This document shows, one piece after another, positions 1 to 16,710 of a stretch of 17,455 bases of DNA. The stretch lies in NCBI GenBank assembly GCA_964637755.1, contig CAZWXA010000032.1, forward strand, positions 1-17,455, written 5' to 3'. The notes under the pieces were generated by a model. The model worked only from the letters and a program-made list of their open reading frames with translations, made no database searches and was not told the origin of the DNA. Numbering within the stretch: position 1 is the stretch's first letter; each line of letters opens with the position of its first letter. The position numbers and the translations under genes are program-made. The stretch comes from an uncultured bacterium (lineage in GTDB: Bacteria > Methylomirabilota > Methylomirabilia > Rokubacteriales > CSP1-6).

Positions 1-1070
1 CGCGCCAGCACCTCCTCGTTCAGCGTGACGCCGAGGCCCGGCCCGGTCGGCACGGCGACGACGCCGTCGCGGGCGCGGATCGGCTCGGTCAGGAGCGGCG
101 CCTCCAATTCGCCTGTCGGGAACTCCAGCCAGAGGCAGCCGGGGCTCGACGCGATCAGGTGGAGCGTCGCTGCGAGGCCGGGGCCGAAGTAGAAGGAGTG
201 CGGGGCGATCGAGAGGTTGGCCGCGGCGGCGAGGGTGCAGATCTTCTTGAACTGGAGGAGGCCGCCCACCTTGGTCATGCTCGGCTGGAGGATGTCGACC
301 GCGCGAAGGGCGATGATGTCGGCGAACCCCTGCGCGAGCCCCTCGTTCTCCCCGGCCGCCACCGGGGTCTCGAGCGCCGCGCTCACCTCGGCGAGGCCGC
401 GGTAGTCCTCGGGGGGCCACACGGGCTCCTCGAACCAGGCCAGGTTGTAGGGCTCGAAGGCGCGCCCCATGCGGATCGCCTCGCGCGGCGTCCACGGGCA
501 GTTGACGTCGAGCATGATGTCCACCGCCGGGCCCACCGCCTCGCGAGCCACGCGCACCGACTCCACGTCGATCTGGTGGAGCTTGAGGGCGCCGAAGCCG
601 GCGCCGGCGTACTGCCGGCAGGCGGCGGCAACGTCCCCCGGAGTCGTGTAGCGCATGAGACTCGCGTAGGCGCGGATGCCCGACACGCAGCGGCCGCCGA
701 GCAGATCGTGGACCGGGACGTTGCGGGCCTTGCCGGCGAGGTCCCAGAGCGCGATCTCGACGCCGCTCAGCGCGTGGATGGCCAGGCCGCGCCGGCCCCA
801 GAGGAAGATCGCCCGCTCCATCTTGTCGACGAGTCGCTCGATCTCGGTCGGATTCTCGCCGAGGAGGAGCGGCACGAGGCTCTCCTCGACCACGCTCACC
901 ACCGCCAGCGGGGCGCCGTACGCGAAGCACTCCCCGATGCCGACCAGGCCCTCGTCGGTCATGATCTTCACGATGATCTGCTTGGGGATGCCGTCCACCC
1001 AGGGCGAGCGCGGGTGCATGGGCCGGACGGGAACGGCCAGCGGGTAGGCCTTGACACCGGTGATCTTCAT
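1..1070 (-). CDS. Mandelate racemase/muconate-lactonizing enzyme family (enolase superfamily) protein. The start codon is at 1068..1070 and the gene runs off the window start, so the C-terminus is missing.
   Basis: Reverse-complement translation from ATG(1070) reads MKITGVKAYPLAVPVRPMHPRSPWVDGIPKQIIVKIMTDEGLVGIGECFAYG...ALKLHQIDVE...DVNCPWT...WFEEPV...AAGENEGL...DILQPSMTKVGG. These are the characteristic MR/MLE N-terminal capping domain and the KxK/D/E/D metal-ligand TIM-barrel motifs. It is absent from the ORF track because it has no in-window stop. Confidence 0.85.
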   Translation of the reverse strand, partial: MKITGVKAYPLAVPVRPMHPRSPWVDGIPKQIIVKIMTDEGLVGIGECFAYGAPLAVVSVVEESLVPLLLGENPTEIERLVDKMERAIFLWGRRGLAIHALSGVEIALWDLAGKARNVPVHDLLGGRCVSGIRAYASLMRYTTPGDVAAACRQYAGAGFGALKLHQIDVESVRVAREAVGPAVDIMLDVNCPWTPREAIRMGRAFEPYNLAWFEEPVWPPEDYRGLAEVSAALETPVAAGENEGLAQGFADIIALRAVDILQPSMTKVGGLLQFKKICTLAAAANLSIAPHSFYFGPGLAATLHLIASSPGCLWLEFPTGELEAPLLTEPIRARDGVVAVPTGPGLGVTLNEEVLA

Positions 1071-1397
1071 GCTCGAACTACTCCTTTCGGACGGACGCAG
1101 TGCCCCGATCTGACGAGTCTCCGCGCGCCGCTCGCCCGGCTGTTCGGCCAGCGCTCCGGTCGCGCGGGTGCCCGCACTCTAGCCGCTCGGCCCGGCGTGG
1201 TCAACGCCGATCACGCCGGGGTCGGCGCCGGGGCGCGCCATGCCGCGCTCGGAAGCGATGGTCCCGGAGGCCCGGGTGCACCTCGCGGCGATCGTTCCCA
1301 CCGGTTCCTCAGACCGGAACGCCCGGCGTTGACGACCGGTTGTACACTTGCGGGTGGCATCAGGCCGATCCCAACCCTAACCCGCACGAGGTCTCGC

Positions 1398-2360
1398 ATG
1401 CACAGACGCCTGCTCGCCGCACTCGTCCTTGTCGCCGCGCTCGCCGGGCCGCTCGCGAATGCCCACGCCGCGCTCCGCATCTTCGTGACGAACGAGAAGT
1501 CCGATGACGTCACCGTGATCGACGCCGCGACCGGCGTCGTGGCGAAGACGATCCCGGTCGGCAAGCGGCCGCGCGGCATCACCGTCAGCCCCGACCGCAG
1601 GCACGTGTACGTCTCCAACAGCAACTCGGACAGCGTGTCGGTCATCGACGCGGTGACGCTCGAGGTCGTCAAGACCGCGCCCGCCGGCCTCGACCCGGAA
1701 GGCCTGACCACGACCAAGGATGGCAAGGTCCTCTACGTCGTGAACGAGAACGAGCTGGCGGTGACGATGCTCGAGCTGCCGTCTCTCGGCATCCTGGGCA
1801 AGATCGAGATCGGCACCGAGCCCGAGACCGCGGTCCTCTCCCCGGACGGCAAGTGGGTCGCCGTGTCCCACGAGACCTCGAACGACATCTACGTGATCGA
1901 CACGGCGACGCGCCAGGTGGTCACGAAGATCCCGGTGCCGAAGAACCCGCGCGGGATGCGCTTCACGCCCGACTCCCGGCGCCTGTTCGTCGCGAGCGAG
2001 GGGGCGGACCAGGTCTCCCTCATCGACGTGGCGGGGTGGACGGTGGTGAAGTCGGTCGCCACGGGGGGCGAGCGCCCGGTCGACATCTCCATCTCCGCCG
2101 ATGGGTCGCGAGCGTACGTCTCGCACGGCAAGACCGGCGACATCCGCGTGCTCGACACCCGGTCGCTCGCCGTGCTCGCCACGATTCCCGTGGGGCCGCG
2201 GGCCTGGTGGACGGCGCTGACCCCGGACGGCGCCCTCCTCTACGTGACGGTCGGCCGCGCGAACGAGGTGGTCGCCGTGGATACCCGGTCGAACGCGGTG
2301 GCCCGCCGCATCAAGGCGGGCACGCTCCCCTGGGGGATCGCGATCGTCGACGCCCCCTGA
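1398..2360 (+). CDS. Secreted beta-propeller protein built from YVTN-family repeats (7-bladed lactonase-like propeller fold).
   Basis: The ATG at 1398 is followed by a signal peptide (MHRRLLAALVLVAALAGPLANAHA). Repeated ~40-aa units follow of the type RxxYVxNxxSDxVSVIDxxTxxVVKTIPVGxxPxGI (RIFVTNEKSDDVTVID, HVYVSNSNSDSVSVID, VLYVVNENELAV, DIYVIDTATRQVV, RLFVASEGADQVSLID, RAYVSHGKTGDIRVLD, LLYVTVGRANEVVAVD). The 5' part of ORF 159..2360 is an antisense shadow of the MR/MLE gene. Confidence 0.85.
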   Translation: MHRRLLAALVLVAALAGPLANAHAALRIFVTNEKSDDVTVIDAATGVVAKTIPVGKRPRGITVSPDRRHVYVSNSNSDSVSVIDAVTLEVVKTAPAGLDPEGLTTTKDGKVLYVVNENELAVTMLELPSLGILGKIEIGTEPETAVLSPDGKWVAVSHETSNDIYVIDTATRQVVTKIPVPKNPRGMRFTPDSRRLFVASEGADQVSLIDVAGWTVVKSVATGGERPVDISISADGSRAYVSHGKTGDIRVLDTRSLAVLATIPVGPRAWWTALTPDGALLYVTVGRANEVVAVDTRSNAVARRIKAGTLPWGIAIVDAP

Positions 2361-2547
2361 GCGGGGAGCCGTAGGCCCCTCCCGCGAGGCTCGGGACGAC
2401 CTCCTTGCGCCCGGGTCCGCGCGCGCCCTGATCGCTCGGTTCTTCCGGGCAGCGGGACGGGCCGGGGTGTGCCGCGCTTGATCCTGTGCTGACGCCGGAT
2501 ACCTGCTACTATCCGGTCGTTCCAACGCTTCATTCCGGGGTGCACAA

Positions 2548-3468
2548 GTGCAGATTTCGTCTGGCCAGGCGCGCGGCGCCCGGCGCGCGGTGCTCGTCGT
2601 CCTCGGGATGCTCGTTGCCGGCGTCGCGTGGCTCAGCTTCTTCGCGGTCGAGACCGGCGAGATCGTGGTCGTCACCCAGTTCGGCGATCCCGTCCGGGTG
2701 GTGAGGACGCCCGGGCTCCACGTCAAGTACCCGTCTCCCCTCCAGAGCGTGTCGCGGTTCGACGGCCGGCTCTTCGCCCTCGTCCCGCCCTCCAGCGAGT
2801 TCCTCACTCTCGGCAAGCGGAACGTCATCGCGGCCGGCTTCATCCTCTGGCGCATCGCCGACGCGAAGCGGTTCATGCAGACGGTGTTCGACCGGACCGG
2901 CGCGGAGTCGCGGCTCGGCGACATCCTGTTCGCCGAGCTGGGCGCCGCGCTGGGCCAGGCGCCGCTGTCCGCCTTCGTCTCCGCGGTCCCCGGCGAGTAC
3001 CGGGCCGAGCAGATTCTCGCCGCCGTGACCCGGCAGTACCGGCAGACCGCCCTGCGCGATTACGGGATCGACGTCGTCGACGTCCGCCTTCGCCGGCTCG
3101 ACTTTCCCGAGCAGAACCGGCTCAGCGTGTTCGCCCGGATGAAGTCCGAGCGGGGCCGGGTCAGCATGAAGTACCGGTCCGAGGGCGAGGAGGAGGGCCT
3201 CAAGATCCGCGCGGCCGCCGAGAAGACGAAGAGCGGGATCCTCGGCGAGGCGTACAAGCTGTCGCAGAAGTCCCGCGGCGAGGGCGAGGCCCGGGCGGCC
3301 AGGATCTACGCGGAGAGCCTCGACCGGGCCCCGGCCTTCTACAGGTTCGTGCGCTCGACCGAGGCGGTGAAGAAGGCGGTGGACAAGGAGACGACGCTCG
3401 TGCTGCCCGTCGACTCCGAGCTGTTCGGGCTGCTCTCCGACAGCCGGTTCCGGTTCCCGGAGCCGTGA
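2548..3468 (+). CDS. HflC-like SPFH/band-7 membrane protein (paralog 1).
   Basis: GTG start with GGGGTG about 7 nt upstream, then an N-terminal TM helix (AVLVVLGMLVAGVAWLSFFAV). The C-terminal region FARMKSERGRVSMKYRSEGEEEG...ARIYAESLDRAPAFYRFVRSTEAVKK...LVLPVDSELF matches HflC (E. coli RMRAERE..HRSQGQEE..GEGDAEA..FYAFIRSLRAY...) and the second HflC at 6957. Confidence 0.8.
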   Translation: MQISSGQARGARRAVLVVLGMLVAGVAWLSFFAVETGEIVVVTQFGDPVRVVRTPGLHVKYPSPLQSVSRFDGRLFALVPPSSEFLTLGKRNVIAAGFILWRIADAKRFMQTVFDRTGAESRLGDILFAELGAALGQAPLSAFVSAVPGEYRAEQILAAVTRQYRQTALRDYGIDVVDVRLRRLDFPEQNRLSVFARMKSERGRVSMKYRSEGEEEGLKIRAAAEKTKSGILGEAYKLSQKSRGEGEARAARIYAESLDRAPAFYRFVRSTEAVKKAVDKETTLVLPVDSELFGLLSDSRFRFPEP

Positions 3469-3554
3469 GCCGGGTCGGCCGCAGCGGAGGGGGGTGAGAC
3501 CGGAAGGGCGCGCAGGACAAGGAGTAGACAACGACGTCCACTCTCACGATTCGC

Positions 3555-3560
3555 AAGGAG
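3555..3560 (+). promoter_or_regulatory. Shine-Dalgarno AAGGAG for the formamidase-family gene.
   Basis: AAGGAG lies 8 nt upstream of ATG 3569. Confidence 0.7.
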
Positions 3561-3568
3561 CCGCTGGC

Positions 3569-4603
3569 ATGTTCGACACTCGCATCCTGAAGCTCGTGAC
3601 CTTGGCGCTCGGAGCGCCGGTGCTGTTCGTGCTGCTGCTGGCCCTCCCGGCCGCGGCCGCGACCATCAGATACACCCCGCAGACGGTCTATTACACATAC
3701 TGCTTCTCGCATCCGCCCGCGGCCCGGATCGCGTCCGGCGACACGGTGATCACCAACACCCGCGACGCCTCGAACGATGCCTTCAAGCCGACGGACAAGA
3801 CGGTGGCGGCCGGCAACCTGGACCTCTCCCGGGTGAACCCGCAGACCGGTCCCTTCTACGTCGAGGGCGCCGAGCCCGGCGACACGCTGAAGGTCCACAT
3901 CGACAAGATCGGCTTCAACCGCAGCTGGGGCTGGGGCGGGGCCCTTCCGTACTTCGGGGCGCTCGCGCCCGAGTACAAGACCATGATGGTCACGCCGCCC
4001 GTGCAGGACACGCTCTTCGTTTGGCAGCTCGACGCGGCGCGCAAGATCGGCACCCTGAACATGCCGAAGAGCAAGATCGGCAAGGTCGAGATCCCGCTCC
4101 GTCCGTTCTTCGGGACGATCGGCACGGCGCCGTACGGCAAGGAGTGCATCAGCTCGCTGGTGCCGGGGACGCACGGCGCGAACATGGACTTCAACGAGGT
4201 GGTCGAGGGCGTCACGATGTACTTCCCCGTCTTCGAGAGGGGCGCGCTCTTCATGCTTGGCGACGGCCACGCGGCCCAGGGCGACGGCGAGATCATGGGC
4301 GCCGCCGTCGAGACGTCGTTCGACGTGACGTTCACCGTCGAGGTGATCAAGGGCAAGAAGATCGGCTGGCCGCGACTCGAGAACGACCGCTACATCATGT
4401 CGATCGGCAGCACCCGCCCGCTGATGGACGCGCTCAGGCTCGCCTGCTCCGACCTGATCAACTGGCTCGCCACCGACTACGGCTACGACAAGATAGACGC
4501 CTACCAGCTCCTCGGCCAGCAGGCCATGCTGAAGGTCGCCAACGTCGTCGACCCGCAGTACTCGGTGGCGTGCGCCATCGACAAGAAGTACCTGCCCAGG
4601 TAA
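3569..4603 (+). CDS. Acetamidase/formamidase (FmdA_AmdA) family protein with an N-terminal signal peptide or membrane anchor.
   Basis: MFDTRILKLVTLALGAPVLFVLLLALPAAAA is followed by GPFYVEGAEPGDTLKVHI, GTHGANMDF, LFMLGDGHAAQGDGEI and QYSVACAIDKKY. These are conserved blocks of the FmdA/AmdA fold. A strong RBS precedes the start and the stop is TAA at 4601. Confidence 0.8.
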   Translation: MFDTRILKLVTLALGAPVLFVLLLALPAAAATIRYTPQTVYYTYCFSHPPAARIASGDTVITNTRDASNDAFKPTDKTVAAGNLDLSRVNPQTGPFYVEGAEPGDTLKVHIDKIGFNRSWGWGGALPYFGALAPEYKTMMVTPPVQDTLFVWQLDAARKIGTLNMPKSKIGKVEIPLRPFFGTIGTAPYGKECISSLVPGTHGANMDFNEVVEGVTMYFPVFERGALFMLGDGHAAQGDGEIMGAAVETSFDVTFTVEVIKGKKIGWPRLENDRYIMSIGSTRPLMDALRLACSDLINWLATDYGYDKIDAYQLLGQQAMLKVANVVDPQYSVACAIDKKYLPR

Positions 4604-4701
4604 GGTGAACCGGGCAGCACCTTCGCGGTACCGGGGATCGGTCGCGACGCGGCCGGTCCCCGGCCTCGCTCCCGCCGGCCTGCGAACCGCCGAGGGCCGG
4701 C

Positions 4702-6960
4702 GTGACTGATTTCCTCTTCCAGGTCGCCTGGGAAGCCTGGTTCGTCCTCCGTGAAGCCTCCTTCTTCCTGCTCCTCGGCTTCGTCCTCGCCGGTGTGCTC
4801 GCCGTCCTCGTCCCGTCGGGGCTGCTCACCCGCTTCCTCGGCCGGGGCAAGATCAGGTCCGTCCTCTGGGCCTCGGCCATCGGCACGCCGCTCCCCCTCT
4901 GCTCCTGTGGCGTGCTGCCCACGGCCCTCGCTCTCTCGCGCCAGGGCGCCACCAAGGGGGCCACGGTCTCGTTCCTCATCTCGACGCCGGAGACCGGAAT
5001 CGACTCGATCGCGCTGAGCTACGCGCTCATGGACCCGATCATCACGGTGTTCCGCCCTGTCGCGGCCTTCGTGACCGCCGTCGTCGCGGGCATCGCCACG
5101 AACTTCCTGGGCCCGAAGGAGCCGCCCCCCCCGAGTGCTCCACCCGGAGAAGCAGAGACCTTGCCCCACCCTGGAGACTCGCTGCCCGGGCGAGAACCTG
5201 ACGCCCAGGGGGAGTCGACCGGAACCGACGCGCCGGGAGGCGAGGGGACGGAGCGGGCGGGACGTGATCCCGAGGGGCCGGGACACTCGCACGCGGGATC
5301 TCACGTCCCCCACCTGCCGGTGGACGAGCGTCCCGGCGGGAGGCTCCTCGATCGGTTCACGCGCGTCTTCGGGTACGCCTTCCGCGAGCTGCTCGACGAG
5401 ATCGCCCACTGGCTGGCCCTCGGTGTCGTCCTGGCGGCCCTCGTGTCGGTCCTCCTTCCCCCGTCCGTCATCGAGCGGTATCTGTCCGGCGGCCTCACCA
5501 CGATGCTGGCGATGCTCGCCATCGGCATCCCGATCTACACCTGCGCGTCGGCATCGACGCCGATCGCGGCCGCGCTCGTCCTGAAAGGCCTGAGCCCCGG
5601 CGCCGCGCTGGTCTTCCTGCTCTCCGGCCCCGCGACGAACGTGGGCGCGATCGTGGTGCTCCTGAAGTTCCTGGGACGCCGCGTCGTTCTGATCTACCTC
5701 GCGTCGATCGCGCTCGTCAGCCTGCTCGCCGGGTATGCGCTCGACTGGGTCTACCGGACCTGGCAGGTGAGCCCGGCCGCGAGCTTCGGGAAGGCCTCCG
5801 GTTTCGTCCCCGAGCAGGTCAAGGTCGCTGCCGGCGTGCTGCTGATCGGACTGCTCCTCGTGAGCTTCTGGCGCGCGCCGATCCCCGGGGAGTGGCTGCG
5901 CGTGCGCGACTGGCTCCACGCGGTGACCGGCGTGCGCCTGACCGCTCGGCGGCTCGCGGCCGCCACCGCCGCCTTCGCCGGCGCGCTCTACCTCGGCAGC
6001 GGGGTGTTCACCGTCGAGCCCGGGGAGGTCGCGCTGCGGACGCGCTTCGGCCGCCTCGTGGGCGCTCCACTCGAGCCCGGGTTCCACCTCCGCCTGCCCT
6101 GGCCCGTCGAGGCGCACCGGGTGCTCCAGCGCGAGCGCATCCGCCGGATCGAGGTCGGGTTCCGGAGCGCGCCGCGGCAGGACAGCGTCGAGCGCGCGTT
6201 TGCCCAGGGGCGACTCACGCTCGCCGGCCCCGGCAACCCGGTGCCGCCCGGCGGGTCGACGGGGTTCTGGTTCCAGAAGGAGAAGGTCTCCGAGGAGTCG
6301 TTCCTGCTCACGGGGGACGAGAACATCCTCGACATCGCGTTCACGGCGCAGTACCAGGTCAAGAACCCGGTCGCCTACGCCTACGGTCTGGCGGATCCCG
6401 ACACGGTCGTGCGGAGCGTGACGGTCGCCGCCCTGCGGGCCGCCGTGGCCACGATGACCGTCGACGTGCTCTACACGAGCGGGCGCGAGGAGGTGGAGCG
6501 GAGGGTCCTGCGGGCGGCGCAGGAGTCCCTCGACGCCTACCAGGCGGGGGTGAGGATGCTCGCCGTCAGCCTGCTCAGCGTGCATGCCCCGGAAGAGGTG
6601 CACGCGGCATTCCGGGACGTGGCGAGCGCGCAGGAAGACAAGATCCTGATCGTCGACCGCGCCACGACGTTCGCGCAGGAAGCCGTCAACCTGGCGGACG
6701 GCGACGCCGCCGCCATGGTCGAATCGGCGCTGGCCTTCAAGGAACAGAAGATCCTGGAGGCCGAGGGCGACGCGTTCGCCTTCAGTCTCCGGGAGAAGGA
6801 ATACCGCCGCGCGCCCGGCGTGACCCGCTTCCGCCTGCAGGTCGAGGCCCTGGAGGAGGTCCTGCCGGCCGCCCAGAAGATCCTGCGACCCGGCCGCGCC
6901 GATCTGAAGGACTTCGACCTCTGGCTGCTCGAGCCGCCGGGGGCGAAGAAGGGCCGGTGA
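4702..6960 (+). CDS. Fusion protein: a two-repeat ArsP/DUF318-type permease (residues ~1-360) joined to an HflK-like SPFH domain (C-terminal ~390 residues).
   Basis: The GTG start is followed by hydrophobic repeat 1 with GTPLPLCSCGVLP (ArsP-like CxC motif). A Pro/Glu/Gly/His-rich loop follows (PPPPSAPPGEAETLPHPGD...GPGHSHAGSHVPH). Repeat 2 carries IPIYTCASASTPIAAAL...LLSGPATNVGAIVV. A TM helix (AATAAFAGALYLGSGVFTV) and an HflK SPFH domain follow (VEPGEVALRTRFGR...FRDVASAQEDKI...EAEGDAFAF...RFRLQVEALEEVL). There is a single uninterrupted frame of 752 codons. Confidence 0.75.
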   Translation: MTDFLFQVAWEAWFVLREASFFLLLGFVLAGVLAVLVPSGLLTRFLGRGKIRSVLWASAIGTPLPLCSCGVLPTALALSRQGATKGATVSFLISTPETGIDSIALSYALMDPIITVFRPVAAFVTAVVAGIATNFLGPKEPPPPSAPPGEAETLPHPGDSLPGREPDAQGESTGTDAPGGEGTERAGRDPEGPGHSHAGSHVPHLPVDERPGGRLLDRFTRVFGYAFRELLDEIAHWLALGVVLAALVSVLLPPSVIERYLSGGLTTMLAMLAIGIPIYTCASASTPIAAALVLKGLSPGAALVFLLSGPATNVGAIVVLLKFLGRRVVLIYLASIALVSLLAGYALDWVYRTWQVSPAASFGKASGFVPEQVKVAAGVLLIGLLLVSFWRAPIPGEWLRVRDWLHAVTGVRLTARRLAAATAAFAGALYLGSGVFTVEPGEVALRTRFGRLVGAPLEPGFHLRLPWPVEAHRVLQRERIRRIEVGFRSAPRQDSVERAFAQGRLTLAGPGNPVPPGGSTGFWFQKEKVSEESFLLTGDENILDIAFTAQYQVKNPVAYAYGLADPDTVVRSVTVAALRAAVATMTVDVLYTSGREEVERRVLRAAQESLDAYQAGVRMLAVSLLSVHAPEEVHAAFRDVASAQEDKILIVDRATTFAQEAVNLADGDAAAMVESALAFKEQKILEAEGDAFAFSLREKEYRRAPGVTRFRLQVEALEEVLPAAQKILRPGRADLKDFDLWLLEPPGAKKGR

Positions 6961-7853
6961 CCCCGCTCCGCCGGACGCTCGCGGTCTCGGTCGCCCTCCT
7001 GCTGGGGCTCGCGCTCTGGTCGTCCTTCATGGTCGTCGACGTGACGGAGTACGCCATCCTCACGCGCCTGGGGAGGGTGGTCCGCGTCGTCAGGGAGCCG
7101 GGCCTCGGCGTCAAGCTCCCGTATCCCCTCGAACGGGTGATCCGCCTGGACCGGCGCCTGCTGACCTTCAAGCCCGGGAGTGCCGAGTACCTGAGCGACG
7201 ACAAGAAGAATCTCGTGATCCACAGCCTCGTGACCTGGCGGATCGCGAACCCGGAGCGGTTTCTCGCGACGGTGGGCGGGCGAGCGGCCGCCCAGGAACG
7301 GGTCGCCGATCTGGTGCTCACGAAGATCGGCGCCGTCGTCGGCAGCCATCCCGCCTCGGCCCTCGTCGGGGTCGATGGGCAGGCCTCGCGGTTCAGCCAG
7401 GTCATGGACCGGATCCTGACGGAGGCTCGCGACAGGGCGCTCGCGGATTACGGCGTCGACCTCGTCGACGTCCGGCTCCGCCAGCTCGGGCTGCCGGAGC
7501 AGAACCGGGCCAACGTCTTCGCGCGCATGCAGGCAGAGCGGGGCAAGATCGCGATGAAGTACCGCTCCGAGGGCGAGCGAGAGTTCAAGAAGGTCGTCGC
7601 CCAGGCCGAGCACGAGAAGACGCGAACCGTGGCGGAGGCGTACCGCGAGGCGGAGCGGGCCAAGGCCGAAGGGGACGCCCAGGCCATGCGGATCTACGCC
7701 GAGGCCTTCGGCAAGAACCCCCAGTTCTACAAGTTCCGGCGCACCCTCCAGGCCTACGAGAAGATCCTCGACGCCAACACCACCGTCTTTCTCCCGGCGG
7801 ACGCGGAAATCTTCCAGATCCTGAACAGCCGGAGATCCGGCGTGGGGAAGTAG
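6957..7853 (+). CDS. hflC: HflC (SPFH/band-7 protease-modulator subunit), paralog 2.
   Basis: The GTG at 6957 overlaps the upstream stop (GTGA), which implies translational coupling. An N-terminal TM helix is present. The translation includes RLGRVVRVVREPGLGVKLPYP...FARMQAERGKIAMKYRSEGEREF...AEGDAQAMRIYAEAFGKNPQFYKFRRTLQAYEKIL...VFLPADAEIF. The upstream part of ORF 5892..7853 is out-of-frame shadow. Confidence 0.85.
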   Translation: MTPLRRTLAVSVALLLGLALWSSFMVVDVTEYAILTRLGRVVRVVREPGLGVKLPYPLERVIRLDRRLLTFKPGSAEYLSDDKKNLVIHSLVTWRIANPERFLATVGGRAAAQERVADLVLTKIGAVVGSHPASALVGVDGQASRFSQVMDRILTEARDRALADYGVDLVDVRLRQLGLPEQNRANVFARMQAERGKIAMKYRSEGEREFKKVVAQAEHEKTRTVAEAYREAERAKAEGDAQAMRIYAEAFGKNPQFYKFRRTLQAYEKILDANTTVFLPADAEIFQILNSRRSGVGK

Positions 7854-7856
7854 GCG

Positions 7857-8921
7857 ATGGACCCGCGAGGCGAGGACTCCCGAGGGGAATCCGCAGGCGG
7901 GACGCCGGACGCCGCTGGCGCCGGGGGGCCGGCGTCCAGGGGGCCGGAGACCGGCCACCCGGTGCCGGGGACTCCGGAGGCCGGGCGGCGCTCGCGGCTG
8001 ACCCGCTACGTCTCCGGCCGCAGTGGCCGATGGCTCGCCGGGCTCGGCGCCCTGGTCGTCGCGGGCTACCTGCTGACCGGCGTCTTCACGGTGGCCGCGG
8101 ACCAGCAAGCGGTGGTGCGCCGGTTCGGGCGGGTCGTGGGCCGCCTCGGACCCGGCATCCACTACCGCTTCCCCCGGCCCGTGGATCGGGTCGACGTTCT
8201 CCGCACCACCACCGTCATGAAGACCGGCGTCGGGTTCGAGCTGCCGGAGGGCGAGGGGCAAACCGTGACCGGCATGGAGATCATGACCGGCGACACCAAC
8301 ATCATCAGCGTGGCACTGGCGCTCCAGTACGTCGTCCGCAACCCGGCCGCGTTCCTCTTCGAGGTCGAGAACCCGCCGGCCCTCATCGGCAGCGTGGCCG
8401 AGTCGGTGCTGACGGAGACCGTTCTCGGCATGCCCGTCGACGAGGTCCTCACCACCGGGCGCCTGGCGATCCAGGATCGCGTCAAGGTCCGCACCCAGGC
8501 GATCCTCGACCGCTACGGCAGCGGTGTCCTGCTCACCTCCGCCAGCATCATGGCGATCACCCTCGACAGCTCGGTGGCCCAGGCCTTCCAGGACGTCGCC
8601 AACGCGGGCGCCGATCGCGAGCGCAAGATCAACGAAGGCCGCGCCTACGCCAACGACCTCCTGCCCAGGGCGCGGGGCGAGGCCCGCTCGACGGTGCTCG
8701 CCGCCCAGAGTTACCGGGATCAGCGGGTCGCAGAGGCCGTCGGCAACACCACGCGCTTCCTCGACCTGCTCGCCGAGTACGCGAAGGCGCCCGAGGTCAC
8801 CCGGACGCGCCTCTACTTCGAGGCGATGGAGAAGATCCTGCCCCGGGTGAAGAAGTACGTCATCGATTCCGAGCACGGCCAGAAGCCGGTCAATCTCCGC
8901 CTCAGCCCGCCTCAGCCGTGA
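7857..8921 (+). CDS. hflK: HflK (SPFH/band-7 protease-modulator subunit).
   Basis: ATG lies 3 nt after the hflC stop, with GGGGAAG as RBS. A disordered N-terminal tail is followed by a TM helix (LAGLGALVVAGYLLTGVF) and an SPFH domain. The segment ...NEGRAYANDLLPRARGEARSTVLAAQSYRD...RFLDLLAEYAKAPEVTRTRLYFEAMEKILP closely matches E. coli HflK (YANDILPRARGDA...ERLYIETMEKVL). Confidence 0.85.
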   Translation: MDPRGEDSRGESAGGTPDAAGAGGPASRGPETGHPVPGTPEAGRRSRLTRYVSGRSGRWLAGLGALVVAGYLLTGVFTVAADQQAVVRRFGRVVGRLGPGIHYRFPRPVDRVDVLRTTTVMKTGVGFELPEGEGQTVTGMEIMTGDTNIISVALALQYVVRNPAAFLFEVENPPALIGSVAESVLTETVLGMPVDEVLTTGRLAIQDRVKVRTQAILDRYGSGVLLTSASIMAITLDSSVAQAFQDVANAGADRERKINEGRAYANDLLPRARGEARSTVLAAQSYRDQRVAEAVGNTTRFLDLLAEYAKAPEVTRTRLYFEAMEKILPRVKKYVIDSEHGQKPVNLRLSPPQP

Positions 8922-9051
8922 CCCTGCGACATGAGTCGGGGCGCATTCCGCGAAGAGGTCAAGACGAGGGCTTCGCCCGCGCCGGCCAGGCGGCCGTGTC
9001 AAAGCCTTCAGGCAGGCGGCTGAAGTCGCGCGGGATGCTGGCCGGTGGCGA

Positions 9052-9057
9052 TAGAAT
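9052..9057 (+). promoter_or_regulatory. Candidate -10 hexamer TAGAAT, positioned to make the small ORF transcript leaderless.
   Basis: TAGAAT ends 7 nt before ATG 9065. There is no convincing -35 and no SD between them. This is speculative. Confidence 0.25.
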
Positions 9058-9064
9058 CGAAGCG

Positions 9065-9289
9065 ATGCCCGACGAGTCGTCCGACCAAGCCGCCGAGCGG
9101 CTGCGCCTCGCGCTCGAGCTGTGCGCGGTCGGGGAAGCGATGATGCGCCAGCGACTCCGGCGCGAGCATCCCGATGCCGACGAGCCGGAGATCGAGCGCC
9201 GCCTGACGGAATGGTTTCTGGAGCGGCCCGGTGCCGAGGGCGGTGATGCCGTCGGCAGGCCGGTGTCGTGGCCGCGCCCGGATCGCTGA
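9065..9289 (+). CDS. Small hypothetical protein (~74 aa), a putative cognate partner (antitoxin-like) of the downstream nucleotidyltransferase.
   Basis: MPDESSDQAAERLRLALELCAVGEAMMRQRLRREHPDADEPEIERRLTEWFLERPGAEGG... is predicted helical and charged. The ORF overlaps the next gene by 22 nt. An alternative ATG exists at 9035. The rest of ORF 8030..9289 is an out-of-frame shadow of hflK. Confidence 0.5.
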   Translation: MPDESSDQAAERLRLALELCAVGEAMMRQRLRREHPDADEPEIERRLTEWFLERPGAEGGDAVGRPVSWPRPDR

Positions 9290-9885
9290 GCCGGGTCGAA
9301 ACCGCTCTCAAGCGGATCCAGGGCGACCTCGAGGGCCTCGACCGTCGCTGGGCGCTCCTGGGTGGCCTGGCGGTCTCGGCCCGGGCGGAACCGAGATTCA
9401 CGCGCGACGCGGACCTTGCGGTCCTCGTGGCCGATGACCGTGACGCTAAGCGGCTCGTGCTCGTGCTTCGGGATCGCGGCTACCGGGTCATCTCGGCGAT
9501 GGAGCAGGAGGCGACCGGGCGCCTGGCCGCGGTCCGGCTGGCGCCGCCGGGCGAGATAGAGCAGGGTGTGGTTGTCGACCTCCTGTTCGGGTCATCGGGG
9601 ATCGAGCCGGAAATCGTCATGGCGGCGGAGCCGCTCGAGATCCTGCCCGGGCTCCGCGTTCCCGTCGCTCGACTTGGCCATCTGCTCGGGCTCAAGCTGC
9701 TCGCGCGCGACGACCGCACTCGGCCGCAGGACCGCGCCGATCTCGTCGCCCTCCTCGCCCGGGCGGATCGGGCGGCGATCGATCTGGCTCGGAACGCGCT
9801 CACGCTGATCACGAACCGCGGCTTCCATCGCGGGCGGGACTTGCTCGCCGATCTCGACTCACTGATCGCCCAGGGGAGCGGGTAG
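9268..9885 (+). CDS. Nucleotidyltransferase-fold protein, AbiEii/MNT-like (type IV TA toxin-like family).
   Basis: LLGGLAVSARAEPRFTRDADLAV fits the GG[ST]A..R.T.D.D(l) nucleotidyltransferase signature. It is followed by VVVDLLFGSSGIEPEIV...LPGLRVPVARLGHLLGLKLLARDDRTRPQDRADLVAL. The GTG start overlaps the upstream small ORF. Confidence 0.55.
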   Translation: MAAPGSLSRVETALKRIQGDLEGLDRRWALLGGLAVSARAEPRFTRDADLAVLVADDRDAKRLVLVLRDRGYRVISAMEQEATGRLAAVRLAPPGEIEQGVVVDLLFGSSGIEPEIVMAAEPLEILPGLRVPVARLGHLLGLKLLARDDRTRPQDRADLVALLARADRAAIDLARNALTLITNRGFHRGRDLLADLDSLIAQGSG

Positions 9886-10036
9886 GCGGAGGCACCGAAT
9901 ACGAGCCGAGCCCTCGGCGCCACCGCGAGAGCCTGACCACGCGCGTTCCGGAGCATCGGAAGACTCGACGTCCGAGAGGGGCCCCCTCGCCCCGGTGAGG
10001 CCACGGCACCGCCAGGCTGCCCGCCCGGGCAATCAC

Positions 10037-10061
10037 TTGACTTCCGGGAGGGTTTCCCGGA
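10037..10061 (+). promoter_or_regulatory. TTGACT hexamer followed by the inverted repeat TCCGGGA-N5-TCCCGGA. This is a candidate promoter/operator of the U32 operon.
   Basis: TTGACT lies at 10037..10042 and the IR arms at 10043..10049 and 10055..10061, about 15 nt upstream of the U32 start. No clear -10 is present. Confidence 0.25.
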
Positions 10062-10075
10062 GCCTGGCAACGACG

Positions 10076-10984
10076 ATGGCGACGCTGCTCGCGCCCGCGG
10101 GAAGCCCGGAAGCCCTGGAAGCCGCCCTCGATGCCGGCGCCGATGCGGTGTACGTGGGCTTGAAGGGCTTCAGCCGGGGCGGGGCCCGGGGCGAGCTCGA
10201 CTGGGACGAGCTGGCCCGGGGCGCTGGGCTCTCGGCCAGCCGGGGAGCGGAGACCCAGGTCGCTCTCAACACCATCCCCAGGCCGGGGGAGCGCGCCCGG
10301 CTCCTCGATCAGGTCCCCCGCCTGCTCGCCCTGGGCGTGCGGACCCTGATCGTCAACGACCCGGGAATCCTGGCGGCGCTCCGCCGCGAGTTTCCCGGGC
10401 TCGCGCTGACGGCCAGCATCGGCTGCGGCGCCCAGACCGAGGCGGACGTGGCGTTCTTCAGGGAGATCGGGGCCGGCGCGGTGGTGCTGCCGGGGACGAT
10501 CGGCCCCGCCGAGGCGGAGGCCTGCTGCCGGGTGCGAGGGATCGCCGTCGAGATCATGCTGCACATGGTCGAGGAGTTCGTGCTCCTCGGGAAGTGCTGG
10601 ATGCCGAGCTACGTCCATCTGAAACCCACGGCGATGCCCGGAGCGGGCGAGGGGGCGCTGCGCCAGACCGGCAGCATGAAGCGCGGCGGCGTCGGCGCGT
10701 GCTTCAGGATTTGCCAGGAGCCCTGGCGGCTTGAGAATGCCCGCGGACTGACGGCGGAAGTGACGTTTCCGAGCCGGCAGCTCAGCCGGCTCGACGACGT
10801 GCGGGGATACCTGTCGGCCGGTGTCGCGGTGCTGAAGCTCCAGGGCCGGAGCCTCCCGCCGCACCTGCTCGGCCCGCTGGTGGCACGATACCGCCGCGCG
10901 ATCGACGCCGCGCTCGGACAGGAGCCCCCCCCCGACTTTCCGGAGCCGGCGCTCCTCCCGTCGTGGACCGTGGTGGGACGTTGA
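10076..10984 (+). CDS. Peptidase U32 family protein (paralog 1; UbiU-like with a variant Cys pattern).
   Basis: MATLLAPAGSPEALEAALDAGADAVYVGLKGF is the hallmark U32 N-terminus. The Cys-containing blocks are SIGCGAQ, EACCRV, LLGKCWMPSY and GACFRICQEP. The terminal LKLQGRS motif is present. A TTG at 10037 is an alternative start. Confidence 0.8.
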   Translation: MATLLAPAGSPEALEAALDAGADAVYVGLKGFSRGGARGELDWDELARGAGLSASRGAETQVALNTIPRPGERARLLDQVPRLLALGVRTLIVNDPGILAALRREFPGLALTASIGCGAQTEADVAFFREIGAGAVVLPGTIGPAEAEACCRVRGIAVEIMLHMVEEFVLLGKCWMPSYVHLKPTAMPGAGEGALRQTGSMKRGGVGACFRICQEPWRLENARGLTAEVTFPSRQLSRLDDVRGYLSAGVAVLKLQGRSLPPHLLGPLVARYRRAIDAALGQEPPPDFPEPALLPSWTVVGR

Positions 10985-11934
10985 CCGCATTCGAGCTCAA
11001 CACCTCGATCTCGAACCTCGGAGACCTGCGCGCCTCCGATCTCGGTCCCTATGATGCCGTCTACCTCGGCAACATCTTCTGCCGGCTCTACGAGGCGAAC
11101 TTCCTCGAGCGGCCGGCGGACCTCGGGGAGGGCCTGCGCATCGTGCGGGATCAGGGCAAACGCGCCTACCTGACCACCTACGCCGCGCCGCGCAACGACT
11201 TCCTGCCCCGGCTGCGGAAGGTGCTCGAGACGGCGGCGGCCGAGGGGGCGGAGGCGGTCGAGGTGCACAACCTCGGCGTCCTCAAGATCGTTCACGACGA
11301 GTTCCCGGGGCTGCCGGTCCACGTGGGGGGCTTCGCCAACGTGTACACCGACGCGGGCGCCGAGGTCCTCAAGGGCTTCGGAGCGGCGCGCATCACCCCC
11401 AACTACGAGCTCCACCTCGACGAGGTCGACCAGATCGCGCGCGACTGCGGGATCGCCATGGAGCTGCTGGTCCACGGGAAGATGCCGCTCGGCGTCTCCG
11501 ACTATTGCTTCCTGCTCGAGTACGAGGACAAGTGGGGCATCAGGTGCCCGGACCTCTGCCAGCAGGACCTCTTCCTCCGCAAGGAGGACTGGGGCATGAA
11601 GTCCGTCGGCAAGGGCGTGCTGAGCGGCAAGGACGTCTGCATGCTCGACCACCTGGCTCGCCTGCTCGGCGGCGGCCACCGCCATTTCAGGATCGAGGCA
11701 GTCTCGGAGACTCCCGCGTATCGCCACGAGGTCGGCCGGGTCTACCGGGAGGCGCTTGGGCAGGCGCTGTCCGGCGAGTACCGGCAGGACGAGACGTGGT
11801 GGGAGACCGTGCGGAGGCACTCGCGGCTCGGCCTCTGCAACGGCTTCTACTTCGGGACGAGCGGCATGGATTACCTGGGTGCCGGACCGGGCGCCGCGGC
11901 CGCCTTCCTCCAGATGCCGCGGCCGGACCCATGA
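10963..11934 (+). CDS. Peptidase U32 family protein (paralog 2; UbiV-like).
   Basis: YDAVYLGNIFCRLYE is similar to UbiV ADVIYLGEAVCSKR. SDYCFLLEYEDKWGIRCPDLCQQD gives C-x12-C-x3-C, the same pattern as the UbiV Fe-S ligands. A GTG at 10963 (22-nt overlap) or a TTG at 10981 (TTGA overlap) indicates coupling to paralog 1. Confidence 0.8.
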   Translation: MDRGGTLTAFELNTSISNLGDLRASDLGPYDAVYLGNIFCRLYEANFLERPADLGEGLRIVRDQGKRAYLTTYAAPRNDFLPRLRKVLETAAAEGAEAVEVHNLGVLKIVHDEFPGLPVHVGGFANVYTDAGAEVLKGFGAARITPNYELHLDEVDQIARDCGIAMELLVHGKMPLGVSDYCFLLEYEDKWGIRCPDLCQQDLFLRKEDWGMKSVGKGVLSGKDVCMLDHLARLLGGGHRHFRIEAVSETPAYRHEVGRVYREALGQALSGEYRQDETWWETVRRHSRLGLCNGFYFGTSGMDYLGAGPGAAAAFLQMPRPDP

Positions 11935-12021
11935 CCGGAGCCGCTCGACCATGCACCGCTCGCGACGCGGGCGTTCGCACCCGCGTCGGACCTCGGGCCG
12001 CCAGCCGGGCGGCGGGCTGAC

Positions 12022-12032
12022 AGGAGAAGGGG
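12022..12032 (+). promoter_or_regulatory. Shine-Dalgarno AGGAGAAGGGG for U32 paralog 3.
   Basis: A purine-rich SD ends 6 nt before ATG 12039. Confidence 0.65.
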
Positions 12033-12038
12033 AATACC

Positions 12039-12998
12039 ATGCTCGAGTTGCTCGCTCCCGCCGGAAGCATCGCGATGGTGGAGGCGGTCGTGGCCAGCGG
12101 CGCCGACGCGGTCTACGTGGGGCCGCGCGGCTGGAGCCGCCGGCGTGACGCCTACGAGCTGGACGACGGGGACGTCAGGCGGTCCATCGAGATCTGCCAC
12201 GCCGGCGGTGCCCGGTGCCGCATCGCCGTCAACACGAACATGCAGTCGCGCGAGATCCCGCCGATGCTCGAGAAGATGGAGCGCTTCGTCGAGTGGGGGG
12301 CGGATGGCGCCATCCTCACGGACATCGGGGCGATCGCGGCGATCCACCGGCGCTTCCCCGCGCTGACGATCCACGCGAGCATCGGCGCCAACATCCTGAA
12401 CGACGAGGACGTGCGCTTCTACCGGTCGCTCGGCGTCTCCCAGGTGGTGGCGGACACGAAGCTCACGCTCCGGGAGCTGGCCTCGCGCAAGGAGCAGATC
12501 GACGTCGGAATCGAGGTGCTGATCCACGCCAACAAGTGCTACACATACCTCGGCAAGTGCTGGATGTCGCCCTATCACCACCTCGAGCGCACGACCGACG
12601 CCTCGGGCAAGGACCTCTTCAAGGGGAGCCCGAACCGCGGCGGTCTCGACTACCGGGTGTGCCTGGAGGCGTGGGAGCTGTACAGCGGGGACCGGCGCCG
12701 GGAGCCGCGCGTCGCCCTCAAGAACGACGCGTTCTTCCTGCTCGAGGACATCCCGCGGCTGATCGACCTGGGCGTCCACTGCCTGAAGGTCCAGGGCCGC
12801 GAGTACCCCGTCGACCTCGTGGGCCGGATGGTCCGGTTCTACCGCGACCTGATCGACGCCTACACCGCTCACCTGGAGGACCGGCCGTTCGATCTCGGGC
12901 CCTGGCGCGAGCGCCTGGCCTCGGTCGAGACGGCCCGTGACGGTGTCCGCACCGAGGGGACACGGCTCCTCTTGGTCGAGGCGCGCCGGCCTGCCTGA
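12039..12998 (+). CDS. Peptidase U32 family protein (paralog 3; UbiU-like).
   Basis: MLELLAPAGSIAMVEAVVASGADAVYVGPRGWS is the U32 N-terminus. HANKCYTYLGKCWMSPY gives C-x6-C as in UbiU (SLCIMSEGRCYLSSY), followed by YRVCLEAWE. The block HCLKVQGREYPVDLVGRMVRFYRDLID resembles UbiU KIEGRQRSPAYVSQVAKVWRQAID. Confidence 0.85.
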   Translation: MLELLAPAGSIAMVEAVVASGADAVYVGPRGWSRRRDAYELDDGDVRRSIEICHAGGARCRIAVNTNMQSREIPPMLEKMERFVEWGADGAILTDIGAIAAIHRRFPALTIHASIGANILNDEDVRFYRSLGVSQVVADTKLTLRELASRKEQIDVGIEVLIHANKCYTYLGKCWMSPYHHLERTTDASGKDLFKGSPNRGGLDYRVCLEAWELYSGDRRREPRVALKNDAFFLLEDIPRLIDLGVHCLKVQGREYPVDLVGRMVRFYRDLIDAYTAHLEDRPFDLGPWRERLASVETARDGVRTEGTRLLLVEARRPA

Positions 12999-13024
12999 GC
13001 CCTTCTCCGCCTCGATCGGCGGAC

Positions 13025-13059
13025 TGCGTGAGTGCGGTTCCCTGACTTGCGTGAGTGCG
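13025..13059. repeat. 12-bp direct repeat TGCGTGAGTGCG occurring twice, with a 23-bp period.
   Basis: Copies lie at 13025..13036 and 13048..13059, in the convergent intergenic space between U32 paralog 3 and the cytochrome c gene. Confidence 0.6.
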
Positions 13060-13063
13060 CTGC

Positions 13064-13082
13064 CGGCCGAGCCGGTCGGCCG
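13064..13082. terminator. GC hairpin (CGGCCGA-GCCGG-TCGGCCG) between convergent genes, a possible bidirectional terminator.
   Basis: A 7-bp perfect inverted repeat with a 5-nt loop. No U-tract is present, which is common in high-GC genomes. Confidence 0.3.
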
Positions 13083-13098
13083 ACGGGAGGTCGCGGCG

Positions 13099-13614
13099 CT
13101 ACTTCGCTGCCGCGTCCTTGAATGTCCGCACGTATTCCGTAAGCTGCCACCGCCTCTCTTCCGGCAGGAACATGCCCCAGGCCGGCATGCCGCCCCACCC
13201 GTTGCTGATCTTCCAGAACAGCTCGCCCTCCGTCTGCGCCTGGACGATCGGCGCGCCGATGTTGACTGCGGGAACGCCCTGCTTGAGGACCACGTATCCC
13301 TTGCCGTCGCCCGCTGGCCCGTGGCATCCGTCGCAGTAGATCTCGTAGGTGGTCTTGCCGGCCTGGATCACGTTGGGCGTGATCGGGAACGGCGGCTTCA
13401 GCTCCTTCGCCTCCGGCGGTGCCACCCAGCGCGTGATCAGGCACTTCGCATAGGCCTGGGCGAGCTCGGCGTTGTGGCAGGCGGTGCAGGCCAGGATCGG
13501 CTTGGCGCAATCCACCTCCCTGGCCGGAGTGTCCTGGGCGCGGCTCGCCGCCGCCGCCGACAGGGCGAGCACGGCCACCGCTGCCCCGACGATCCATCGA
13601 CCTCGACGTGTCAT
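13099..13614 (-). CDS. Di-haem c-type cytochrome with a signal peptide.
   Basis: Two CxxCH motifs (CTACH, CDGCH). The N-terminus MTRRGRWIVGAAVAVLALSAAAASRAQD is a signal peptide. The strong RBS AGGGGGAA lies 5-6 nt upstream of the start, on the minus strand at 13618..13625. Confidence 0.8.
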   Translation of the reverse strand: MTRRGRWIVGAAVAVLALSAAAASRAQDTPAREVDCAKPILACTACHNAELAQAYAKCLITRWVAPPEAKELKPPFPITPNVIQAGKTTYEIYCDGCHGPAGDGKGYVVLKQGVPAVNIGAPIVQAQTEGELFWKISNGWGGMPAWGMFLPEERRWQLTEYVRTFKDAAAK

Positions 13615-13738
13615 AAGTTCCCCCTTTGGCGGACCCTCGGGCCGCGCCGTCGCGAATTCGCGCGCCGGCGCCGGACGGTCGGCGCAGGCGCCAGTCTGCA
13701 CCCGCGGGCGCGCCCGCGAACATGATGTGGATCATAGC

Positions 13739-15139: not shown

Positions 15140-15146
15140 GGGGGAG
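15140..15146 (+). promoter_or_regulatory. Shine-Dalgarno GGGGAGG for the amidohydrolase gene, preceded by the AT-rich patch TCTCTAATCTAATCTCTAAACGTT (15112..15135).
   Basis: The SD ends 6 nt before ATG 15153. The AT-rich patch carries the overlapping repeat TCTAATC/TAATCTC. It is the only AT-rich element in about 1 kb and is a candidate promoter or operator. Confidence 0.55.
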
Positions 15147-15152
15147 GCAGGG

Positions 15153-16658: not shown

Positions 16659-16680
16659 TCACCCGCCCGAGCGCTCCCTG

Positions 16681-16710
16681 CCCCACCCGTCGCCGACGCG
16701 ACGGGTGGGG
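16681..16710. terminator. Perfect 12-bp-stem hairpin (CCCCACCCGTCG-CCGACG-CGACGGGTGGGG) 23 nt after the amidohydrolase stop.
   Basis: The stem and 6-nt loop were read directly. No U-run follows, so this is a terminator-like structure rather than a canonical intrinsic terminator. Confidence 0.4.

Follow-up and report, generated by a model that had tools for sequence, protein, structure and literature searches.

A permease of a Cu/Zn efflux family fused to HflK at the start of an SPFH gene trio in an uncultured Methylomirabilota bacterium, with parallel fusions of other metal transporter families

The cages formed by members of the SPFH family (stomatin, prohibitin, flotillin, as well as HflK/C) have been described in plentiful structures, whereas their function and clients have long been open and deletion phenotypes in bacteria are weak. 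Here, we describe a gene in which an SPFH protein, HflK, is joined in one reading frame to a membrane permease related to a Cu/Zn efflux family. The gene lies on contig CAZWXA010000032.1 of an uncultured Methylomirabilota bacterium (Rokubacteriales, CSP1-6; assembly GCA_964637755.1), of which positions 1 to 17,455, referred to below as the window, were analysed. Gene fusion is the strongest type of genomic evidence for a physical partnership. Coordinates of the features discussed are collected in Table 1.

The HflK half of the protein is best compared with Escherichia coli HflK/HflC–FtsH (7VHP, 7WI3, 9CZ1), where, as in the window, the HflK and HflC genes are paired and their products carry N-terminal transmembrane (TM) anchors followed by an SPFH domain and a coiled coil. 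The window HflK and HflC proteins pass the HflK/HflC equivalog cut-offs and are predicted to be periplasmic, N-in/C-out, as in E. coli. The window differs in having three SPFH genes (four in a five-gene form, see below) rather than two, in a first HflK that bears a nine-helix N-terminal transporter, and in lacking hfq/hflX or ftsH nearby, in contrast to the canonical Ralstonia hflK/hflC locus. Native HflK/C has been described as an open, nautilus-like assembly, which offers membrane substrates an entryway to FtsH and enhances their degradation (bioRxiv 10.1101/2024.08.09.604662). Among eukaryotic SPFH proteins, the dome of human stomatin physically encloses AQP1 and UT-B (PMC12407830), and in structural terms this is the nearest precedent for a transport protein held within an SPFH dome. 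It is likewise an SPFH oligomer associated with specific membrane transport proteins; unlike the window system, the association is non-covalent and the homo-oligomer faces the cytoplasm.

For the permease half, the reference is SO_0444 of Shewanella oneidensis (NF033936; TCDB ArsP family), which Shewanella needs in order to grow when stressed with ZnSO4 or CuCl2 and whose operon also contains a ZntR-like regulator (PMC3219624); it is annotated as a Cu/Zn efflux protein for these two reasons. The window protein matches this profile over nearly its full length, and the Cys-Ser-Cys (CSC) signature of the family, Sec-Ser-Cys in some members (bioRxiv 10.1101/2022.07.06.499078), is common to both. 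Stand-alone members have 350–400 amino acids (aa) and, unlike the window fusion, had no SPFH neighbour in any of 46 loci, within flanks of up to 8 kb. No ZntR-like regulator was seen in the window, in contrast to the SO_0444 operon.

The nearest likeness in gene content is found in Pseudomonas aeruginosa PA2434–PA2439, where the P1B ATPase HmtA, described as an importer (PMC4542158, PMC11761036), accompanies three genes annotated as HflC-family, HflC and HflK-family (PMC4542158). PA2437–2439 are up 9–14-fold in a zinc-starved znuA mutant, with a weak Zur site upstream (PMC4542158). At the protein level, zinc depletion clearly raised PA2438 and PA2439 (log2 2.7–4.9) and also PA2435 (HmtA); for PA2437, which only one method picked up, the increase was without significance (PMC11761036). 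The three proteins, also named PaFlo5–7, are patchily distributed, for which horizontal transfer was suggested by the authors of a 2026 study, and P. aeruginosa keeps a separate canonical hflK–hflC locus as well (PMC13086221). As in the window, three SPFH genes form one operon next to a Zn/Cu transporter, and in Pseudomonas both the trio and HmtA are induced at the RNA level by zinc depletion; unlike in the window, the transporter is a separate gene from a different family, and the likeness is drawn from the gene descriptions. The published Pseudomonas work draws no mechanistic SPFH–transporter link and makes no mention of fusions (PMC4542158, PMC11761036, PMC13086221). In the literature, no description was found of the fusion, of a metal-linked HflK–HflC–HflK module or of parallel CDF or P1B fusions, and Hinderhofer 2009 contains no mention of such a fusion.

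For characterization of the window protein, Pfam and NCBIfam profiles were used. Pfam ArsP_1 (PF03773) matched residues 18–347 (E 7e-44, 150.6 bits against a cut-off of 32.3) and Band_7/SPFH matched residues 437–653 (E 2e-23). NCBIfam placed residues 13–387 in the SO_0444 Cu/Zn efflux family (NF033936; 383.9 bits against 300, profile positions 2–349 of 351) and residues 435–728 in HflK (TIGR01933; 176.9 bits against 159.4). The original prediction, made from the letters alone, had read the gene as one polypeptide of a CxC permease of the ArsP_1/DUF318 family and an HflK-type SPFH protein, and these matches bear it out, including its expectation that the N-terminal half would match the DUF318/ArsP profile. 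As a typing, ArsP/DUF318 holds at the level of Pfam, but the closest curated family is SO_0444 Cu/Zn efflux and not the organoarsenical exporter ArsP. Since the SO_0444 match reaches position 349 of 351, the helix at residues 371–391 is already part of the SO_0444 family profile. What had been taken for an extra TM helix ahead of the SPFH domain is HflK's own membrane anchor (~415–437). Within the SPFH half, residues 531–729 align to E. coli HflK (7VHP) residues 145–343 (E 3e-35), and the N-terminal SPFH part, which has an insertion of ~45 residues, gives no alignment to it. By sequence, PDB matches covered the HflK half only, and no solved structure was found for the permease half.

Within the permease, two homologous repeats (~14–136 and ~226–349), each containing a broken helix besides a helical hairpin, flank a variable loop predicted to be cytoplasmic (residues 138–214, 5113–5343). 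The two-repeat architecture claimed from the letters was supported by hhalign of residues 10–140 against 222–352 (probability 98.2%, E 3.5e-14, 121 columns aligned), in which C69 stands opposite C281 and STPETG opposite SGPATN. The motifs named at the same time are both present, LCSCG in repeat 1 (residues 66–70, 4897–4911) and YTCAS in repeat 2 (residues 279–283, 5536–5550). Across the permease alignments, the CSC motif (C67-S68-C69) was invariant in those of 33 and 39 sequences and nearly invariant in a third, and Y279 and C281 were invariant in all three. The His-rich loop, also pointed out as possibly metal binding, does exist (GPGHSHAGSHVPH, 5275–5313, residues 192–204), but it is not a conserved feature. 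Length and composition of this central loop vary widely in the 33-sequence alignment, and in many close relatives it lacks His altogether; the loop was therefore ruled out as a conserved, defining metal site.

The reading frame itself is an uninterrupted 752 codons, as first described. The window DNA has a guanine and cytosine (GC) content of ~70%, and long open frames are common in such DNA, hence weak evidence alone; the plus-strand frame is taken as the real gene because of its domain content. Antisense to it runs an open reading frame (ORF) of 700 aa (4501..6603, minus strand), and a further one of 954 aa (6537–9401, minus strand) overlaps HflC and a second, unfused HflK (HflK2) downstream. 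We read both as typical high-GC shadow ORFs; L001 and L002, two annotated relatives, have no called gene at the corresponding position.

A database search for the same architecture, which had been proposed as a check, recovered the fusion in ~235 database clusters and 35 species genomes. All of the best 120 matches of the window protein (120/120; 672–738 aa, 56–78% identity) carried both Pfam domains, and a distant relative used as query yielded ~115 further matches with both. In a scan of one genome per GTDB species, the full-length fusion was found at 35 loci from more than 10 phyla. Carriers in culture include Bradyrhizobium erythrophlei GAS478 and B. australiense WSM 1791. The labels of fusion-carrying metagenome-assembled genomes (MAGs) include Burkholderiales, Acetobacteraceae, Zixibacteria, Phycisphaerae/Planctomycetota, Acidobacteria/Holophagales, Gemmatimonadetes, Myxococcota/Deltaproteobacteria, Binatia, Eisenbacteria and Spirochaetales. 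A query of 151 residues spanning only the junction was also run against 1.84 billion cluster representatives (50% identity), giving 327 matches, with ArsP_1+SPFH fusions making up 61 of the best 150. In the 33-sequence alignment, the junction residues P395, E397, W398, G410, Y430 and G441 were invariant.

These data bear directly on whether an assembly or sequencing artefact, such as a lost stop or a frameshift, had joined two neighbouring genes. Such an error is made conceivable by high-GC DNA, which favours long open frames and here contains the 700-aa antisense ORF, and by the relative L007, in which fusion and HflC are not even separated by a stop. Against this, an identical collinear arrangement, its junction invariant, recurs in hundreds of assemblies that were made independently and cover many phyla and sources, isolates included, and we regard an artefact as having practically no chance of being correct. 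The frameshift worry voiced at the outset is thus excluded by comparison rather than by reads, and on the comparative evidence the permease–HflK fusion is genuine and ancient. In L007, an alphaproteobacterial MAG, fusion and HflC form a single ORF of 1071 aa (7362–10577), which would be either a triple fusion or a sequencing error.

In public databases, the fused proteins are present by the hundreds under half-correct names ('HflK protein', 'FtsH protease activity modulator HflK' or 'SO_0444 family Cu/Zn efflux transporter'), and the component families are all known. Transposase or integrase genes flank several of the clusters (the flanks of L001 and L002; L087, 838–1946; L090, 1–1944). The closest named relatives of the window protein are from Methylomirabilota, and the Bradyrhizobium fusion proteins are 51% identical to it. 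Together, the flanking transposases and integrases and the Bradyrhizobium identity suggest that the module moves horizontally. In a protein search of 72,556 plasmids, none carried the ArsP–HflK fusion.

With respect to gene context, fusion, HflC and HflK2 follow one another in this order on one strand in every fusion locus with a long enough contig. HflC was found where the original prediction had placed it and is translationally coupled, its GTG start overlapping the TGA stop of the fusion (GTGA). It had been presumed to complete the SPFH system by itself; this overlooked HflK2, which begins 3 nucleotides (nt) past the HflC stop. Because the trio is invariant and stand-alone permeases lack SPFH neighbours, the fusion is linked by its genomic context to a three-gene SPFH module and not to HflC alone. 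Closer relatives, comprising Methylomirabilota-like contigs and alpha- and beta-proteobacteria, have a five-gene form in the order HflC, FmdA-like, fusion, HflC, HflK2, to which the window belongs. No plus-strand terminator was found across 2300–9400, a region in which promoter and terminator prediction was uninformative. A riboswitch or leader RNA upstream was considered and ruled out, since no Rfam family reached its gathering score in the window or in six related loci. In neighbour-joining (NJ) trees, which are poorly resolved within HflK, the SPFH domains of ArsP-type fusions fall outside the group of canonical HflK and HflK2.

HflK fusions were also encountered with other transporters. 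On the Aquibium oceanicum plasmid NZ_CP018172 (L087, 2287–5932), hflK (515 aa), HflC and hflK stand in a row, and the 515-aa protein, annotated as 'hflK', combines a complete membrane domain of the cation diffusion facilitator (CDF) family (PF01545 positions 1–197 of 198) with Band_7. This CDF–HflK fusion is widespread, and the best 120 matches of the protein all share its architecture, including those from Rhizobium sp. AN80A, Oceanicaulis and Kouleothrix. Three further loci (L089, L090 and L091) encode CDF–HflK, HflC and HflK, then a large peptidyl-prolyl isomerase (PPIase; Rotamase_2), which is also present in L087. The junction search also yielded ten proteins with P-type ATPase and SPFH domains. 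Three of 1011–1045 aa (P0429, P0447 and P0496) scored 553–623 bits with the P1B model TIGR01525 (cut-off 346.25) and 173–201 bits with HflK (cut-off 159.4); in L092 (6001–10985) the P0447 fusion is followed by two Band_7 genes. CDF–HflK and P1B–HflK fusions are otherwise annotated only as 'FtsH protease activity modulator HflK'.

By their domain matches, then, three unrelated families of metal-cation transporters are attached to the first HflK of the same HflK–HflC–HflK trio. As in the window, the order is transporter–HflK, HflC and second HflK; the transporter folds, in contrast, are unrelated, and CDF-type clusters have the large PPIase instead of the ZIP, ZnuABC or FmdA-like genes of window-type clusters. 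This threefold occurrence points to metal transporters as built-in clients of SPFH cages. The junction search also returned SPFH proteins of 679–730 aa (P0462, P0464 and P0506) with a different N-terminal domain of ~300 residues, several hydrophobic segments and a shared RPAFDSRLL...YQFGF motif ahead of the anchor, which may be another class of client-fused SPFH protein.

Structure prediction was carried out with AF2. For the permease alone, with a more diverse alignment of database proteins, the model had a mean predicted local distance difference test score (pLDDT) of 84 and a predicted TM-score (pTM) of 0.79, and the closest solved fold was that of the arsenite pump ArsB. The permease is confidently modelled as an elevator-type inverted-repeat protein of the ArsB/ion-transporter superfamily. 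The features that define this superfamily were recovered in the prediction: the two repeats are inverted, and in both of them a discontinuous helix and a re-entrant hairpin come together at the substrate site, and Cys67, Cys69 and Cys281 lie at the helix breaks. Identity to ArsB, VcINDY, AbgT, TRAP DctM and CNT is only 9–11%, and the window permease is smaller than these, with nine helices. Its Cys ligands suggest a soft metal cation and not an anion, in contrast to the ArsB-type superfamily. In the SPFH region, the full-length model has helices at 630–703 and 706–720.

The topology was predicted from charge. Four positive residues at 38–53, three at 322–327 and six Arg at 391–417 indicate, by the positive-inside rule, that the repeats are inverted and the central variable loop is cytoplasmic. 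Helix 9 (371–391) would return the chain to the cytoplasm, and the HflK anchor (~415–437) would run from inside to outside. The known topology of HflK is N-in/C-out and, together with the positive-inside rule, would place the SPFH domain in the periplasm, as in E. coli HflK. An anchor of this orientation requires that the transporter ahead of it ends in the cytoplasm. CDF and P1B transporters have cytoplasmic C-termini, and the predicted permease topology fits in the same way.

For the metal connection, all ORFs around the 35 fusion loci were clustered, and Pfam-annotated neighbourhoods were read as well. ZIP genes were found close to the trio at 10 of the 35 genome loci and in L085, directly abutting it on the same strand in L009, L012, L020, L030 and L032, and abutting in L085 also. 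Genes for ZnuA/ABC/ABC-3 transporters follow HflK2 in 5 of 35 loci and in L084; the ZnuA-type binding protein of L023 has a His-rich loop. The same picture comes from independently annotated contigs, where the trio is followed by ZnuA, ABC_tran and ABC-3 (L084) or by Zip (L085). No regulator and no ftsH gene was recurrent around the clustered fusion loci.

An alternative in which the permease is an organoarsenical (ArsP-type) efflux protein and its SPFH part incidental draws on the Pfam ArsP_1 match, the vicinal CxC motif and ArsB as closest solved fold. It is opposed by the score with the SO_0444 Cu/Zn model, well over the cut-off, and by the occurrence of the same fusion with CDF and P1B metal transporters. 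Moreover, ars genes were neither recurrent around the 35 clustered loci nor present in the Pfam-annotated neighbourhoods, where zinc-type transporters are the recurrent neighbours. An arsenical permease is, on balance, very improbable.

Among stand-alone SO_0444-type permeases, seven loci from Desulfobacterales-like MAGs (L048, L058, L065, L070, L074, L076 and L079) have an in-frame TGA at the first Cys (PL*SCG), ~65 codons into the match. We read these as selenocysteine (U-S-C) members of the SO_0444 family, whose genes are truncated by the ORF finder because the first Cys codon is an in-frame TGA.

Regulatory sites were sought by scanning 12 upstream regions for Zur-like palindromes and the proteobacterial consensus, which may not be that of the host; none was found in the window. 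In L007, a perfect AT-rich palindrome (TATGTAATAATATTACATA, ~5072–5090) resembling a Zur operator lies ~150 nt upstream of the five-gene cluster, and neither the window nor any of 10 further upstream regions showed anything like it.

The locus is probably best explained as a metal-homeostasis SPFH assembly with a transporter built into its scaffold. In this proposal, the permease would export a thiophilic divalent cation, most likely Zn2+ and possibly Cu, from the cytoplasm to the periplasm. From its cytoplasmic C-terminus, a linker of ~25 residues would lead into the HflK anchor, which would traverse the membrane outwards. The three SPFH proteins would co-assemble into a periplasm-facing ring or cage of the HflK/C kind, with HflC alternating with both kinds of HflK, whereby several permeases would be held at a delimited membrane patch. 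The purpose would be to localise and control metal transport within zinc/copper homeostasis, possibly placing the transporters near other cage clients, such as ZIP or ZnuABC importers or FtsH.

A self-caged or microdomain-restricted transporter had been suggested from the window alone. This idea is reasonable and now has strong comparative support in the CDF–HflK and P1B–HflK fusions, whereas the ring or cage, the co-assembly of the SPFH proteins and the position of the permease relative to the ring are what we infer. Several observations weigh against the proposal, the main tension being between fused families that are known above all for export and, on the other side, operon partners that import and a Pseudomonas analogue that reacts to zinc starvation. 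ZIP and ZnuABC as partners are awkward for a simple detoxifying exporter, and so, by analogy, is the zinc-starvation induction in Pseudomonas. Substrate and direction are drawn from the fitness phenotype of one homolog, at a resemblance comparable to that of stand-alone permeases with 39–45% identity. The Pseudomonas trio is likened to that of the window by described gene content, and its deletion gave only subtle phenotypes, metal stress not being among the conditions used (PMC13086221). Also unfavourable are the moderate quality of the full-length AF2 model (pLDDT 62), the lack of any Zur-type operator or other regulator in the window, and the lack of ftsH in ~40 neighbourhoods.

FtsH is a zinc protease, and the trio could be mainly an FtsH modulator, as canonical HflK/C is, in which FtsH, seated inside the cage, would quickly degrade or spare the tethered permease according to metal status, or in which FtsH would be tuned by the permease domain in the role of a metal sensor. 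The fused HflK, HflK2 and HflC all score above the HflK/HflC equivalog cut-offs, the fusion aligns over residues 531–729 with the E. coli HflK of the FtsH–HflK/C structures, and the large PpiD/SurA-like PPIase that follows CDF-type trios lends them a flavour of protein quality control. Native HflK/C, moreover, admits membrane substrates to FtsH and enhances their degradation (bioRxiv 10.1101/2024.08.09.604662). On the other hand, the separate canonical hflK–hflC of P. aeruginosa (PMC13086221) makes the trios look like extra systems, and the SPFH domains of the fusions group apart from canonical HflK and HflK2, albeit in poorly resolved trees. No ftsH gene occurs in any of ~40 neighbourhoods either, an absence that is compatible with FtsH-coupled turnover all the same. 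An FtsH-centred role, with the sensor variant counted in, we consider rather unlikely.

In a further alternative, a periplasmic metal chamber, the cage would close over the exporters, and metal would be pumped into a sealed periplasmic lumen and there stored, buffered or passed to enclosed proteins such as the FmdA-like one, with the co-encoded ZIP or ZnuABC importers retrieving it. SO_0444, CDF and P1B transporters are best known as exporters while their operon partners are importers, a secreted FmdA-like protein is conserved beside the fusion, HflK/C and stomatin form a dome over a membrane patch, and stomatin encloses transporters. However, this construction is entirely inferential, including the placing of the permease inside the ring. 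Native HflK/C, with its open, nautilus-like shape, is not sealed (bioRxiv 10.1101/2024.08.09.604662), HmtA beside the Pseudomonas trio has been described as importing metal, and no metal-binding features of the lumen were identified. The chamber, with or without retrieval by importers, is therefore improbable. It is equally doubtful that transporter-fused HflK–HflC–HflK trios constitute an unrecognised class of envelope compartment, an SPFH-walled periplasmic Zn/Cu chamber with importer retrieval. If they did, they would be a prokaryotic counterpart of a zinc store, in which enclosed proteins are metallated and metal is stored or buffered, and would give SPFH cages their first obligate clients that are hard-wired genetically.

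With these fusions, the transport of transition metals becomes a candidate function, both specific and testable, for one branch of HflK/C proteins. Tractable material is available in cultured Bradyrhizobium, Rhizobium sp. AN80A and P. aeruginosa. For annotation, 'HflK' and 'SO_0444 family Cu/Zn efflux transporter' each hide half of the fusion protein.

Table 1. Features of the fusion gene and of the surrounding SPFH cluster in the window
Feature	Coordinates	Strand	Details
Upstream HflC paralog, 306 aa	2548..3468	+	TIGR01932 162.5 bits vs 134.4; Pfam Band_7
FmdA_AmdA (acetamidase/formamidase-family) protein	3494..4603	+	PF03069 E 5e-37
Fusion gene, SO_0444/ArsP_1-type permease + HflK paralog	4702..6960	+	GTG start, TGA stop, 752 aa
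Permease domain, residues 1–392	4702..5877	+	Two ~120-residue homologous repeats plus ninth helix 371–391
Cys67-Ser68-Cys69, predicted metal-binding tip of hairpin 1	4900..4908	+	Conservation in alignments
Tyr279-Thr280-Cys281, equivalent tip in repeat 2	5536..5544	+	Conservation; C281 aligns with C69
Junction: Arg-rich predicted cytoplasmic linker 392–414 (short helix 396–409) and HflK TM anchor ~415–437	5875..6012	+	
HflK-type SPFH domain, long coiled-coil helices and C-terminal DLWLL motif (conserved)	6013..6957	+	TIGR01933
HflC, 298 aa, N-terminal TM anchor	6957..7853	+	TIGR01932 191.8 bits vs 134.4
Second, unfused HflK (HflK2), 354 aa	7857..8921	+	TIGR01933 216.2 bits vs 159.4

The two upstream genes of the five-gene form are regarded as lineage-specific accessories. 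The upstream HflC paralog was found at the same position in L001–L007, L011, L017, L024 and L028, and in the NJ tree it comes out as a duplicate of the HflC downstream. The FmdA-like gene, directly upstream of the fusion, is kept in the five-gene loci. Its product starts with a hydrophobic signal or anchor segment (LKLVTLALGAPVLFVLLLALPAAAA) and is probably periplasmic; among solved structures its best relative is 5UBU, named 'putative acetamidase/formamidase' (E 3.5e-58). In L083, two divergent FmdA_AmdA genes stand beside a distant fusion.

Directly downstream of the SPFH cluster lies an AbiEii-type nucleotidyltransferase toxin (PF08843, E 3e-11; 9268–9885, plus strand), whose start is overlapped by a possible small antitoxin ORF ending at 9289. 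The gene is not kept beside the cluster in other loci and matched no PADLOC model. An anti-phage defence system, a candidate prompted by AbiEii, was rejected, as none of seven proteins gave a PADLOC match and the AbiEii neighbourhood is not conserved. Near the start of the window, a protein of 733 aa (159–2360, plus strand) has a C-terminal beta-propeller of the YncE/PQQ-ABC type (TIGR03866, 257.9 bits, just below the cut-off of 287.3) and a faint match to AztD, a zinc chaperone (E 7e-4); in other loci its gene is not kept beside the cluster. Beyond AbiEii, three consecutive Peptidase_U32 paralogs were found (9995–10984, 10963–11934 and 12039–12998, plus strand), members of a family that includes O2-independent hydroxylases (UbiU/UbiV) and RNA hydroxylases.

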